From NCBI GenBank assembly GCA_035307625.1, contig DATGHY010000358.1:2031-66030 (forward strand): 64,000 bases of DNA, read 5' to 3'. The DNA is from Actinomycetota bacterium (GTDB taxonomy: Bacteria > Actinomycetota > AC-67). The translations under genes and the position numbers were made by a program. Below, in pieces: positions 41,850 through 64,000 of the stretch (within the stretch, counting starts at the first letter, position 1; every line of letters begins with the position of its first letter). The notes beneath the pieces are model-generated. The model was not told the DNA's origin. It searched no databases and was given only the letters and a program-made list of their open reading frames with translations.

Positions 41850-41962
41850 TGTTTCCACGACAAAGGCAAACCCGCCGCAAGGCGGGGACGCAAAGCCACG
41901 GGACCTTCCGCAGGGGTCAGCCGGGTTGCCGAAGGAGACGACGGAACGCAGTTGCCCGTCGA
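41850..41962 (+). ncRNA. Candidate c-di-GMP-I (GEMM) riboswitch in the 5' leader of the CAP-domain protein gene
   Basis: CACGACAAAGGCAAACC + CCCGCC-GCAA-GGCGGG GNRA hairpin + GGGACGCAAAGCCACGGGACC. Position-by-position match to the conserved GEMM-I core (Vc2: CACGCACAGGGCAAACC..GAAA..GGGACGCAAAGCCUCCGGCC). Sits in a 346-nt gene-free leader. Confidence 0.65.
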
Positions 41963-42027: not shown

Positions 42028-42771
42028 ATGGGAAAGCGTTTCGCATCTGGGGCGCTCGTTGTGTCGATGATCGTTGCGGGCATCGTGACGGTCGCGGCAG
42101 GTATCGCATCCGCATCGACCGCGAGCGATGAATCACACTTCGTTTCACTGATCAACTACGAGCGTACGACCGACACCAAGTCGTGGTCGTGCGGTCGCGC
42201 CGGCGGGCTCAACGCACTCTCGGTTGCAAGCGATCTCGTTGCAGTCGCGCGCAAGCACAGCGAGCAGATGGCTGCCAAGGGCACGATCTGGCACGACTCC
42301 AGCACGTGGAACTCGGTCAGCGGCTGGAGCGAGTACGGCGAGAACGTCGGGATGGGCCCGAGCGACATCTCCGACCCGGTGGGCAACCTGCACACCGCGT
42401 TCATGAACTCCTCCGAGCACTGCCAGAACATCCTCTTCTCGCACTCGAACCCGGTCTTCAACCAGGTCGGTGTCGGCGTGGTCATCTCGAACAACACGAT
42501 GTATGTCACCGAGATCTTCGTGCGCCGCTCTTCGGGCTCGAGCTCGACGACCTACCACCGCTCGACGACCACGCGCAGCACGACGACCCACCACACCACG
42601 ACCTACCACCCCGTCGCGTCCGTGACGCGCGCCGCCGCGGCGAAGCCAAAGCCGAAGCCGCTGGCCGCGCCGCCGGTCGCAACACCGCAGACGGTCGACC
42701 TGCTGGTCCGCATGATCGGCATGGACTCTGACAACGTCGATCCCGCAACAGGAGCAGCTGCAGGGTTTTAG
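42028..42771 (+). CDS. Secreted CAP-domain (SCP/PR-1-like) protein
   Basis: Signal peptide (MGKRFASGALVVSMIVAGIVTVAAGIASA); CAP motifs (..HSEQMAAKGTIWHDS.., ..HTAFMNSSEHCQNIL..); Ser/Thr/His-rich C-terminal linker. Confidence 0.8.
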   Translation: MGKRFASGALVVSMIVAGIVTVAAGIASASTASDESHFVSLINYERTTDTKSWSCGRAGGLNALSVASDLVAVARKHSEQMAAKGTIWHDSSTWNSVSGWSEYGENVGMGPSDISDPVGNLHTAFMNSSEHCQNILFSHSNPVFNQVGVGVVISNNTMYVTEIFVRRSSGSSSTTYHRSTTTRSTTTHHTTTYHPVASVTRAAAAKPKPKPLAAPPVATPQTVDLLVRMIGMDSDNVDPATGAAAGF

Positions 42772-61206: not shown

Positions 61207-62216
61207 TCTGGGTCGCATGGCGCCAACATCGCACGCTGATGCTTTGGGGAGCAGTAGCCGTCGCCGCGATGACGCTCTTTCTGATTCCCACCGGCATCGG
61301 CATGTCGCACTTTTTCACATCGAGCGGCCTGGCTCGATGTCTCTCAACGGTCGGCGCCGATTGTGGTGACCTCGGCCAGCAGTTCGACAGTCGTTACAGC
61401 GGGTATGCGTTCCTCGTTCCGCTCTTCTTGATGGCGCCGGTCCTGTTCGGCATGTTCTTCGGCGCACCGTTGATCGCGCGGGAGATGGACGGCGGCACCT
61501 ATCGGCTCGCGTGGACGCAAGGTGTGAGCCGGCCACGCTGGTTGTCGACGAAGCTCGCGGTCGTCATCGGGTCCGCGCTCGTCGGCGCCATAGCGTTGGC
61601 GCTTCTAGTCACCTGGTGGAGCCGGCCACTCATCACGAACGGCGCATCTCGATTCCGGCCGGGCATCTTCGACCTTCGCGGCGTCGTCCCCATCGCTTAC
61701 ACGATCTTCGCTGTGATGCTGGGCGTAGCGATCGGTACGTTGATAAAGAAGACCCTCCCCGCAGTCGGCGTGACGCTGGTTGCTTTCGCGGGCGTCCGCG
61801 TCGGCATCGAGCTCTTCCTACGGCAGCACTACATGACCGCGAAGACGCTCACGCAGTCGCTCATCTCGTCGAAGGGCCCTCCCGGTGCGGGGGCGGCTGA
61901 CTGGATCATCCGAGAGAACACGATCGATCGGCTCGGTCACATCGTCTCTAGCGGACGAGGGCCGGACTTCGGCTACCTCGCGGCGCGCTGCCCCGCCCTC
62001 GCCGCGGCAGGTCCATTTCCGAAATTTGCTACAGCGGTACCGGGCCAGGCAGACCCCTTCGCGGCCTGCGTTCAGCACCTCGGCCTGCGCGACATGATCG
62101 TTTATCAACCCGCGTCACGTTTCTGGACCTTCCAGTGGATCGAGTTCGGCATCTTCATCGCGCTCGCGATCGGACTAGCCGTGTTTACGGTGTGGAGAAC
62201 GAAGCGGCTCAGCTAG
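61203..62216 (+). CDS. ABC-2 family transporter permease
   Basis: 6 predicted TM helices; translationally coupled to the ATPase (ATGA overlap). Confidence 0.78.
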   Translation: MIWVAWRQHRTLMLWGAVAVAAMTLFLIPTGIGMSHFFTSSGLARCLSTVGADCGDLGQQFDSRYSGYAFLVPLFLMAPVLFGMFFGAPLIAREMDGGTYRLAWTQGVSRPRWLSTKLAVVIGSALVGAIALALLVTWWSRPLITNGASRFRPGIFDLRGVVPIAYTIFAVMLGVAIGTLIKKTLPAVGVTLVAFAGVRVGIELFLRQHYMTAKTLTQSLISSKGPPGAGAADWIIRENTIDRLGHIVSSGRGPDFGYLAARCPALAAAGPFPKFATAVPGQADPFAACVQHLGLRDMIVYQPASRFWTFQWIEFGIFIALAIGLAVFTVWRTKRLS

Positions 62217-63124
62217 CCGCGAGCGAGCGATTCGAGGAAGAACCGGACGTTTGCGGGCCGCTCGGCGATGCGACGCATCAGGTACGGGTACCACTCACTG
62301 CCGAACGGCACGTACACGCGCAGGCGATACCCCTCGGCGTCGAGTCGGCGCTGGAGCTCGCGCCGCACGCCGTAGAGCATCTGGAACTCGTATGTCCCCG
62401 GCGTCTTACCAACGCGATCTATCTGTCGCAGGACGTGCTGGATCAGCCGCTCGTCGTGAGTCGCGATCATCGCGTAGGACGGTGAGGTGAGCAGCCGGTT
62501 GGCCAGGCGCGCGAATGCCGCGTCGACCTCCGGGTGCTTCCGGTAGGCGATCTCCCCCGGCTCGCTGTACGCGCCTTTGCAAAGCCGGATGCCCACCTTG
62601 GCTTCGATCAGCCGCTCGAGATCGGCGGCCGAACGGTGCAAGTACGCCTGGATCGCGATGCCGACGGCCCCAGGATGCGCGTGTCCCAAACGAACGGCTG
62701 CCTCGACCGTGCGCTCGGTGTAGCGGTGGTCTTCCATGTCGAGCGTGACCGAGCTCTTGATCTCGGCGGCGCGCGCAACGATCCCCTCGATCAGGTCGAA
62801 CGCATGGCCGCCGTCGACGTCCAGCCCGAGCTGCGTGAGCTTGACGCTGATGTTCGCCGAGAGGCCCTCGCCGGCGATCCGGTCGAGCGTCGCGAGGTAC
62901 ACGCCGGCGGCCGCTTTGGCTTGCTCGAGGTCGGAGACGTTCTCACCGAGGTAGTCGGCGCTCGCAGACGCACCCTCGGCGTTGATCGCTCGGATCGCTT
63001 CGACCGCGTGGTCGATGTCCTCTCCGGCGACGAAACGAAGCGCAACTTTCCGTCCGAGCCCCCCGGTCGCCAGTCGCCGCACGAACGGGCGGTTGATCAC
63101 GCCGAGGATCAGGTTGCGCAGCAC
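62213..63124 (-). CDS. Proline dehydrogenase (monofunctional PutA-like)
   Basis: 303 aa; PRODH TIM-barrel motifs ..LRFVAGE.., ..VKLTQLG.., ..IQAYLHRS.., ..MLYGVR.. Confidence 0.85.
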   Translation of the reverse strand: MLRNLILGVINRPFVRRLATGGLGRKVALRFVAGEDIDHAVEAIRAINAEGASASADYLGENVSDLEQAKAAAGVYLATLDRIAGEGLSANISVKLTQLGLDVDGGHAFDLIEGIVARAAEIKSSVTLDMEDHRYTERTVEAAVRLGHAHPGAVGIAIQAYLHRSAADLERLIEAKVGIRLCKGAYSEPGEIAYRKHPEVDAAFARLANRLLTSPSYAMIATHDERLIQHVLRQIDRVGKTPGTYEFQMLYGVRRELQRRLDAEGYRLRVYVPFGSEWYPYLMRRIAERPANVRFFLESLARG

Positions 63125-63266
63125 GCTTCAGATTGTAGGTGCGCGCGTAGCGTGGAAAAGACAAGGAGCGAAGACGAAATACATAGGGCCCGAGGTGTCC
63201 TACCGGTGGTCCGCGTCACACCTTGCGGCGTTTCGCGATCCGCCCTCAGACTCCCCGGGCCCTAAG

Positions 63267-63493
63267 TGCCCCGAGCAACCCCCACGAACCGTCTTGGTTT
63301 CCTTGTGGTAAACCCCACAGACGTTCGACTTTGGGTTACTTACCCTTCTGGTAGTTTACCCGCCAGACCAGCAAGTTAGCTGTCCCTACCGGCCTGACAG
63401 TGCACCCCCACTCGGTTGGGCTCCTTACGGCCAGCCCGCCCGCAGCGTTCCCATTCGGTTCCCTGATTCGGCCGTTCCGGCCGCTCGGGGCAC
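63267..63493 (-). ncRNA. Unclassified highly structured RNA element (about 227 nt) closed by a perfect 11-bp helix; probably a cis-regulatory leader (riboswitch-like) of the proline dehydrogenase gene, or an independent sRNA
   Basis: GTGCCCCGAGC ... GCTCGGGGCAC terminal inverted repeat enclosing at least 6 local hairpins. A sigma-70-like promoter (TTGAAA-N16-TATCTT) sits 7 nt before the 5' end on the minus strand. A GC-rich long stem plus U-rich tract follows, between the element and the gene start. Confidence 0.4.
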
Positions 63494-63497
63494 GCGA

Positions 63498-63525
63498 AAG
63501 ATACCACGCGATTCTCTCGTTTCAA
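63498..63525 (-). promoter_or_regulatory. Candidate sigma-70-type promoter (-35 TTGAAA, 16-nt spacer, -10 TATCTT) driving the structured RNA
   Basis: Minus-strand TTGAAAC-N16-TATCTT-TCGCG-TG with the predicted TSS at the first base of the closing helix; AT-rich patch in GC-rich DNA. Confidence 0.35.
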
Positions 63526-63646
63526 GAATGGGAAAAGACCTGGTCGTTTTGCAAAACCGCAGGTGATTGAAAAAACGAGAAGAAGAGCGTGAAAAAAATC
63601 TTCGCGCAAACCTTTGCAAGCATGTCGAACGTGTCGCTGCGCGCGA

Positions 63647-63964
63647 TCACGACCCTGCGTTGCGCGCGCGCCACGCCATGTCGGCTTCGAGATACGACTT
63701 GAAGCCCACCTCGATCGCCGCGTTGAACAAGCCGTCCGCTTCGATGAGCAGCGAGCCGATGATGCGGTCGAGCTCGTCGGTGTCGAGGCCTTGCGCGGCG
63801 CGCGCGCCCACGAGGAACACGTCTCCTTGCGCATCCAGAGCGAAGTGCACGCCGTACGCGCGCGCGTTCCTCCTAAGCAGCATCTCGTAGAACTCGGCGA
63901 GATTCTCTTGCGGCCGGCGCATGAAGAAGGACTCGAAGATCACTCGATCGCCCGAGAGCGCCAC
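63647..63964 (-). CDS. Hypothetical protein (possible YbjN-like domain protein)
   Basis: 105 aa ORF with high third-position GC; ..GVHFALDAQGDVFLVGARAAQGLDTDELDRIIGSLLIEADGLF.. resembles the YbjN-family C-terminal half. Confidence 0.4.
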   Translation of the reverse strand: MALSGDRVIFESFFMRRPQENLAEFYEMLLRRNARAYGVHFALDAQGDVFLVGARAAQGLDTDELDRIIGSLLIEADGLFNAAIEVGFKSYLEADMAWRARNAGS

Positions 63965-64000
63965 GCCGAGCGGGATCGTGTGCTTGCGGTCACCGCGAAG

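Follow-up and report, generated by a model that had tools for sequence, protein, structure and literature searches.

The DNA analysed here, referred to as the window, comprises 64,000 nucleotides (nt) of an Actinomycetota bacterium (AC-67; assembly GCA_035307625.1, contig DATGHY010000358.1, positions 2,031-66,030). On its minus strand, between a YbjN-family gene and the gene for proline dehydrogenase (PRODH), lies a genuine gene for a structured RNA of about 320 nt; it is under strong constraint, has its own promoter and represents a new family restricted to one lineage. An earlier interpretation made from the letters of this DNA alone (the sequence-only reading) had placed an unclassified multi-helix RNA on this strand. 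In our analysis the element turned out to be conserved and covarying, and no Rfam family matched it. As the best explanation, and one that we consider rather probable, we propose that a structured non-coding RNA (about 320 nt) has a gene to itself here and belongs to a new family in a clade of uncultured soil Actinomycetota. In our estimate it is also probable that this RNA has a transcript of its own and works in trans, either as a folded RNA or as a ribonucleoprotein.

In minus-strand order the locus consists of the ybjN stop codon, an AT-rich region (48% GC, compared with 65% for the window), the promoter, a GC-rich 228-nt core element, an 81-nt hairpin, a U-rich tail, the hexamer TACAAT and the GTG start codon of PRODH at 63124. 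The RNA element is single-copy within the window. Nucleotide 1 of the RNA is window position 63493, counted along the minus strand.

Homologues were collected along three routes, and the related loci are labelled with L-numbers (L001, L123 and so on). Loci of PRODH relatives were taken from one genome per GTDB species and then examined for the RNA element. Ten of them carry it (nhmmer E = 1e-36 to 1e-65); they belong to metagenome-assembled genomes of unclassified Actinomycetota, one of which is mislabelled as Acidobacteria. In a second retrieval, metagenome contigs were searched with a 20-mer that all sequences of the first alignment share. This returned 34 contigs, 32 of them true homologues and two chance matches, which is about the expected number. 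A walk via the YbjN neighbour yielded eight further contigs with the RNA, divergent ones included. The homologous structured element was thereby recovered in about 45 related loci. The 20-mer search is blind to short-form members of the family, which is thus probably wider than sampled. All hosts are uncultured soil or groundwater Actinomycetota. The identity of the core to that of the window is 79-91% in loci where the PRODH proteins are only 53-66% identical.

Covariation was measured on an alignment of 27 sequences (A2) with an RNAalifold consensus fold and 106 predicted pairs. Standard pairs occupied 94.9% of the cells, whereas only 34-46% were reached when the partners were slid by one to three columns. 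Changes on both sides were seen at 32 of the 106 pairs as compared with 10-16 after sliding, and none of 500 shuffles reached this number. Across the predicted pairs, G·U cells by far exceeded A·C cells (565 versus 34). This establishes the minus strand of the window as the folded strand. On this strand the core folds with -111.8 kcal/mol (z = -5.8 against shuffles), and core and 3' hairpin together with -169.3 kcal/mol (z = -7.6); the plus strand gave z = -4.35. The loops hold indels of 1-2 nt among the homologues, which excludes a coding reading; together with the compensatory substitutions these indels rule out a coding sequence as the explanation for the conservation.

The conserved fold is a long-range stalk bearing a branched apical domain and not a series of local hairpins. 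It is closed by helix P1, formed by the inverted repeat GTGCCCCGAGC/GCTCGGGGCAC at 63266-63276 and 63483-63493, whose arms are 100% complementary and separated by 206 nt. The perfect 11-bp closing helix described in the sequence-only reading is therefore present; since its arms span 63266-63493, the element measures 228 nt and not 227 nt as stated there. The helix is conserved in the relatives, can be extended to 13 bp and covaries, with C-G replaced by U-A on both sides in three lineages. Next to P1, hairpin P2 takes the form GGCUG/CAGCC in L108, L110 and L111. The RNAalifold consensus pairs the P2 bases long-range instead, and P2 competes with the P1 extension and the stalk base for the same bases. 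In the long, irregular stalk both partners have changed at five pairs, and Watson-Crick pairs take the place of the A·A and G·A mismatches in L088, L124 and L131. Compensatory changes in the apical hairpin P5 include G-C/A-U/C-G at one pair and A-U/G-C/U-A at another. P6 is weakened in L127. The segments joining the helices are almost invariant among the homologues.

Of the five local stems proposed earlier, GGCC/GGCC, GGGCU/AGCCC and GGGU/ACCC are compatible with the alignment. The other two are not. The CUGUC/GACAG stem pairs in only 76% of the cells, and in 18 of 26 sequences one of its pairs is broken. CUGGU/ACCAG shows no covariation at all, and its breaks coincide with the compensatory changes in P5, the long hairpin that replaces both stems. 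Inspection by eye for a K-turn in the 3' hairpin and for a sponge of the CsrA type with GGA motifs gave no support for either.

The most conserved part of the core is a 27-nt run, CCGUAAGGAGCCCAACCGAGUGGGGGU. Its invariance in A2 is partly due to construction: a 20-mer taken from this run served to find the metagenome members. The run is altered in L127 and deleted in L123. The L123 locus (L123:4638-4916) carries a natural short form without P4, without the 27-mer and without half of P5. Still present in it are the promoter, the CCAGAAGGGUAAG segment, the 3' hairpin and the stalk, in which compensatory changes have occurred, and it folds as a rod (z = -5.9). The closest relatives of this short form, L127 and L129, carry the long form. 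A second variant was found in L126 (L126:5830-5960), where the 3' hairpin is enlarged by about 75 nt of extra hairpins capped by GNRA loops. These natural variants show that the RNA is modular.

The promoter and terminator scan covered 800 nt around the locus. It found two promoter-like sites where 0.1 were expected, one of them the TTGAAA-N16-TATCTT promoter to which the sequence-only reading had already assigned a start at the closing helix. On the minus strand it consists of a -35 box TTGAAA (63525-63520), a TG extension (63506-63505) and a -10 box TATCTT (63503-63498) with a 16-nt spacer. The predicted transcription start at 63491-63493 coincides with the start of P1. All homologues have a -35 box TTGAMN, a 16-nt spacer which varies in sequence and is constant in length, and then TGg-TAnnnT; the middle of the -10 hexamer varies (TCT, CAT, GTT, GGT). 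Fixed boxes around a changing spacer of constant length are what a functional sigma-A promoter should show.

A further conserved box (Table 1) abuts the -35 box on its upstream side. It might bind a factor, serve as an UP-like element (T tract) or terminate ybjN. In L002 and L115 a second copy of its GACCAGG..TTTTSCC half is found about 30 nt farther upstream. The pattern occurs only once in the window, hence no regulon could be inferred.

At the other end, the core is followed by the 81-nt hairpin, in which 19 pairs change on both sides and the tip loops swap between GNRA and UNCG. In every homologue the hairpin is followed by a U-rich tail: T makes up 45% of the 14 nt past the stem (34 homologues) compared with a background of 17.7%. 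With its tail, the hairpin presumably acts as an intrinsic terminator. The GC stem and U-rich tract had previously been compared with the expression platform of a riboswitch. The hairpin is indeed real, conserved and terminator-like; its sequence-conserved base is not typical of an expression platform.

Table 1. Features of the RNA locus and its neighbours (window positions unless a locus is named)
Feature	Position	Strand	Basis or remark
Upstream YbjN-family gene, 3' part	63647..64000	-	Open reading frame list; stop at 63647; continues past window edge
Conserved upstream box ACCTGCGG...GACCAGG-N2-3-TTTTCCC (window: GACCAGG-TC-TTTTCCC)	63531..63564	-	Abuts -35 box; kept in homologous loci
Promoter, sigma-70/sigma-A type	63498..63525	-	Promoter scan; conserved in homologues
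Structured RNA core, 228 nt	63266..63493	-	Fold z = -5.8; ~45 loci; covariation
P1 closing helix, 5' strand (GUGCCCCGAGC)	63483..63493	-	nt 1-11; perfect 11-nt repeat
P2 hairpin GGCC-GGAAC-GGCC	63470..63482	-	96% of cells pair; slight covariation
Stalk, 5' strand (GCCGAAUCAGGGAACCGAAUGGGAACGCUGCGGGC)	63438..63472	-	nt 22-56; pairs with 63288-63322
P4 hairpin GGGC-UGG-CC-GUAA-GG-A-GCCC, GNRA-type loop	63418..63437	-	Nearly invariant; missing in L123 short form
27-nt stretch CCGUAAGGAGCCCAACCGAGUGGGGGU	63404..63430	-	Identical in 27/27 A2 sequences
P5 long hairpin, ~19 bp	63357..63404	-	99.2% of cells pair; 5 pairs change on both sides
P6 hairpin GGGU-AAGUA-ACCC within conserved CCAGAAGGGUAAG segment	63333..63345	-	Invariant, hence without covariation
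Stalk, 3' strand (GUCUGUGGGGUUUACCACAAGGAAACCAAGACGGU)	63288..63322	-	nt 172-206
P1 closing helix, 3' strand (GCUCGGGGCAC)	63266..63276	-	nt 218-228
3' hairpin, 81 nt	63184..63264	-	Begins 1 nt past core; base sequence-conserved, tip variable
U-rich tail, putative intrinsic termination site	63156..63183	-	T enrichment after stem
TACAAT, -10 box of putative PRODH promoter	63132..63137	-	7 nt before GTG start
PRODH gene	62213..63124	-	Neighbour, not part of RNA; PF01619 Pro_dh, E = 9e-35
Surface-protein genes	L002:2093-3820, L004:2200-3948, L006:2055-3848, L007:2096-3946		
Surface-protein genes (continued)	L087:7819-9561, L091:2801-4441, L115:6169-7836, L116:6001-7683		

The position of the RNA in front of PRODH had suggested that it forms part of the PRODH leader. 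This is not borne out by the start region of the gene or by the gene order in the relatives. Wherever PRODH directly follows the RNA (about 17 loci: the window, L103, L106, L003, L114, L082, L005, L097, L102, L001, L090, L088, L124, L126, L127, L129 and L131), TACAAT or TAGGAT is found 6-7 nt before the GTG or ATG start codon, with no Shine-Dalgarno sequence. Such spacing is what one expects of an mRNA that lacks a leader and is made from its own promoter. Leaderless mRNAs are common in Actinobacteria. The PRODH reading frame of the window cannot extend upstream of the GTG at 63124 (start codon 63122-63124). Judged from this arrangement, PRODH looks like a leaderless gene with a promoter of its own. 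A 71% complementarity between the first PRODH codons (63112-63128) and the 3' strand of P1 (63264-63280) is probably due to chance, because the match is lost in L001 and others.

In other relatives different genes lie between the RNA and PRODH. Depending on the genome, the RNA is directly followed by PRODH, by the gene for a surface protein of 550-620 aa, by an isochorismatase gene (L015) or by the gene for a NUDIX hydrolase (L116). The surface protein combines a signal peptide with repeats rich in Ser, Thr and Ala and ends in an LPxTG-like motif followed by a hydrophobic tail; no Pfam domain was found in it. Its gene has a conserved palindrome and a promoter-like region of its own; in L004, L087 and L115 the palindrome preceding the gene reads GGACTA-N6-7-TAGTCC. 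The upstream side varies as well: the RNA is preceded by ybjN, by an inserted amidohydrolase gene on the opposite strand or by a lipoprotein-like gene. A full-length orthologue of the upstream gene of the window matches PF10722 (YbjN) with E = 1e-14. The amidohydrolase (about 350 aa, PF01979; L003:1-783, L005:1445-2545, L101:5929-6972) is inserted between ybjN and the upstream region of the RNA. These three loci are very close relatives (PRODH 90-97% identical), and the break lies exactly at the ybjN stop codon. With varying genes on both sides, the unit of promoter, RNA and hairpin behaves as an autonomous module.

All homologues lie within the synteny block GT4(mshA-like)-(PIG-L)-GNAT-YbjN-[RNA]-(X)-PRODH-ProC. 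The RNA is absent from the syntenic site in L121 and L122 (L121:5448-5705, L122:3927-4091), where YbjN is 55% identical and the upstream synteny is the same, and also from this site in outgroups with a YbjN of 37-43% identity. In place of the RNA, L121 and L122 have the gene for a 1661-aa S8 peptidase, which starts 259 nt after ybjN. A scan of IMG/VR with a two-box pattern of the RNA gave no match. On four short JGI contigs (L093, L096, L107, L112) fragments of the RNA are joined to unrelated coding sequence, i. e. these are chimeric assemblies. The fragments begin at about nt 12-56 and in three of the four end at about nt 215-226; L093 continues into the 3' hairpin up to the end of the contig. 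If the JGI samples in question were metatranscriptomes, these fragments would hint at a high abundance of the RNA.

The Rfam comparison proposed with the sequence-only reading, including ydaO (RF00379) and cobalamin (RF00174), was carried out and no family matched. In an Rfam 15 scan of the whole window at gathering score, the RNA locus was not matched by any family. At E<=10, window positions 63050-63750 and the divergent members L123 and L110 gave only scattered chance matches (EBV sisRNA, microRNAs, fragments of long non-coding RNAs), none of which recurred. ARAGORN detected neither a tmRNA nor a tRNA between 62000 and 64000. Six conserved strings of the RNA were not found in the searchable literature apart from one irrelevant match. 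This agrees with the earlier statements that neither the ydaO nor the cobalamin class is matched convincingly and that signatures of RNase P, tmRNA, signal recognition particle (SRP) RNA and 6S RNA are missing.

The two riboswitch classes deserve comment since an attractive link between cyclic di-AMP (c-di-AMP), osmolyte homeostasis and proline catabolism had been drawn from short motif echoes alone, which the covariance models do not confirm. The ydaO riboswitch is a pseudo-two-fold aptamer with conserved ACGR/GGGGA cores, and the cobalamin riboswitch has a four-way junction core with a B12 box. Like both, our element has a large 5' domain with a closing helix at the presumed +1, followed by a GC hairpin and a U-rich tract before a metabolic gene, and it shares a few short words (GGGAA, GCACUGU) with them. 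It differs from them by its fold, by a P1 of 11-13 bp, by the sequence-conserved base of the hairpin and by a following gene which appears to have its own leaderless promoter and varies by genome. RF00379 gave no match at gathering score and none at E<=10 on the three divergent members; RF00174 gave none at E<=10, and the segment with the GGGAA-like words pairs long-range with the 3' strand of the stalk.

The locus could nevertheless be built as a cis-acting leader, whether a new riboswitch or an attenuator that binds a protein: the core would sense a ligand or factor and the 3' hairpin would be a regulated terminator gating read-through. The layout of promoter, helix-closed domain, U-tailed hairpin and same-strand gene is that of a leader; the downstream gene is co-directional in all loci with PRODH always nearby, a binding pocket might be made up of the nearly invariant nucleotides at the junctions, and the competition between P2 and the stalk base would permit a conformational switch. 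Yet read-through would bury a PRODH start which lacks a Shine-Dalgarno sequence and has a -10 box at leaderless spacing in about 17 loci. Moreover, four unrelated gene families directly follow the RNA, and one of them, the surface-protein gene, has its own palindrome and promoter-like region. A P1 of 11-13 GC-rich pairs is far more stable than a typical switching P1. The 3' hairpin downstream of it is self-contained, and typical expression platforms do not share the sequence conservation seen at its base. No conserved antiterminator pairing was seen on inspection, which was not an exhaustive search, and none of the riboswitch families in Rfam matches. A cis-acting leader seems unlikely to us, and a riboswitch that gates proline catabolism, as proposed in the sequence-only reading, is not supported in view of the PRODH -10 box, the varying downstream genes, the long P1 and the conserved hairpin base. 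Somewhat less likely still is a new riboswitch-like class with the core as its sensor, a portable gate that would respond to a ligand or protein and control read-through into whichever gene follows.

The RNA could also be a functional analogue of 6S or Ms1 RNA, i. e. an abundant RNA that binds and sequesters RNA polymerase in stationary phase. Ms1 and 6S are small RNAs that bind RNA polymerase (PMC9130861, PMC4191392); Ms1, an actinobacterial RNA of about 300 nt, binds the polymerase core, and classical 6S RNA had long been undetected in actinobacteria (PMC9130861). Host, total length (about 320 nt), a strong-looking promoter giving a separate and largely helical transcript, and the extended stalk, which in the L123 short form folds as a rod, all fit such a role, and the small additional hairpins close to both ends resemble those reported for Ms1. 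However, there is no large central bubble: the loops of the stalk do not exceed about 3x3 nt and the centre is branched. Covariance models of 6S RNA (RF00013 and relatives) and Ms1 gave no match at E<=10. The synteny that defines Ms1, a HAD-IB hydrolase and an oxidoreductase (PMC9130861), is absent here, where the neighbours are GT4, GNAT, YbjN, PRODH and ProC. Ms1 of S. coelicolor gave no nhmmer match to the family profile at E<=100, which is weak evidence as Ms1 RNAs are themselves very divergent, and string searches of the supplement of the Ms1 paper revealed no similarity to the RNA family. Ms1 RNAs show no BLAST-detectable similarity between genera (PMC9130861), whereas the RNA described here is far more strongly conserved. 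Such an analogue is thus improbable. If the RNA were instead an SRP RNA, RNase P RNA or tmRNA so divergent that the standard models miss it, the very high sequence conservation, the strong promoter and the single copy would be in keeping with such a housekeeping role. Some short strings recall the SRP helix 8 region and the GGUAAAC segment of RNase P RNA, resemblances which we take to be leads, not tests. At E<=10 the three divergent members had no SRP, RNase P or tmRNA match in Rfam, ARAGORN found no tmRNA, and the RNA lacks the P4 signature of RNase P as well as a tRNA-like domain. The absence of the RNA from L121, L122 and the outgroups, and a natural short form without the most conserved 27-mer, also speak against a housekeeping function, which we regard as extremely improbable.

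The RNA most closely resembles the orphan structured RNAs such as raiA and is a member of no described family. Large orphan structured RNAs of bacteria include the raiA motif (about 200 nt, in Firmicutes and Actinobacteria), OLE, ROOL and GOLLD. In common with raiA-type RNAs it exceeds 200 nt and has multiple helices, near-invariant junctions and many covarying pairs, its own promoter and putative terminator, and a habitual gene neighbour that is not obviously regulated. Unlike them it has a long stalk with P4-P6 and a second domain, the 81-nt hairpin, and so far it has been seen in only one clade of uncultured soil Actinomycetota. The raiA motif itself (RF03072) gave no match at E<=10.

For a stand-alone RNA of this kind, the following course of events can be envisaged. 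A strong sigma-A-type promoter, with a near-consensus -35 box, an extended -10 box and an AT-rich upstream region, would start the RNA at the first bases of P1. The 228-nt core would then fold into the long irregular stalk and the branched apical domain (P4, P5, P6) with its almost invariant junctions. The 81-nt hairpin with the U-rich tail would end the transcript and probably shield its 3' end, while PRODH or another following gene would be transcribed from its own promoter. Stable and folded, the RNA would work in trans by binding a protein or other partner, as is thought for orphan structured RNAs.

Conservation, fold, strand, the conservation of the promoter, the independence from the identity of the neighbours and the absence from Rfam are directly supported; termination at the hairpin, high expression, action in trans and any partner of the RNA are presumed. 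Several points weigh against a stand-alone RNA acting in trans. The next gene is on the same strand in every locus and PRODH is always within three genes, so that cis effects by read-through are possible. The simple consensus terminator scan did not call the 3' hairpin, and intrinsic terminators do not usually have hairpins of 81 nt, let alone the roughly 150 nt of L126, an expansion that is hard to reconcile with a simple terminator of this type. Since P2 and the stalk base share the same bases, alternative conformations are possible. Both ends of the RNA are predicted ones. Finally, as the homologues come from one lineage with conserved synteny, the variety of contexts is limited.

Elsewhere, the sole Rfam match in the 64-kb window is a c-di-GMP-I-GGC riboswitch aptamer (RF03167) at 41856-41934 on the plus strand (78.1 bits, E = 7.5e-17). 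It lies about 90 nt upstream of a gene (42028-42771, plus strand) for a secreted protein of the CAP/SCP family (PF00188, E = 6e-10) with a signal-peptide-like N-terminus and a Ser/Thr-rich C-terminal part.

For work on the RNA at PRODH, its narrow host range and the uncultured host set practical limits. The results correct the attractive idea of a proline or c-di-AMP riboswitch at PRODH. Few large bacterial RNAs combine dozens of covarying pairs with near-invariant junctions, and earlier orphan RNAs (OLE, raiA, ROOL, GOLLD) pointed to unexpected RNA biochemistry. The present RNA extends this group by a well-defined family which has a clear promoter and two domains and occurs in natural modular variants, namely the short form and the form with the expanded 3' hairpin.

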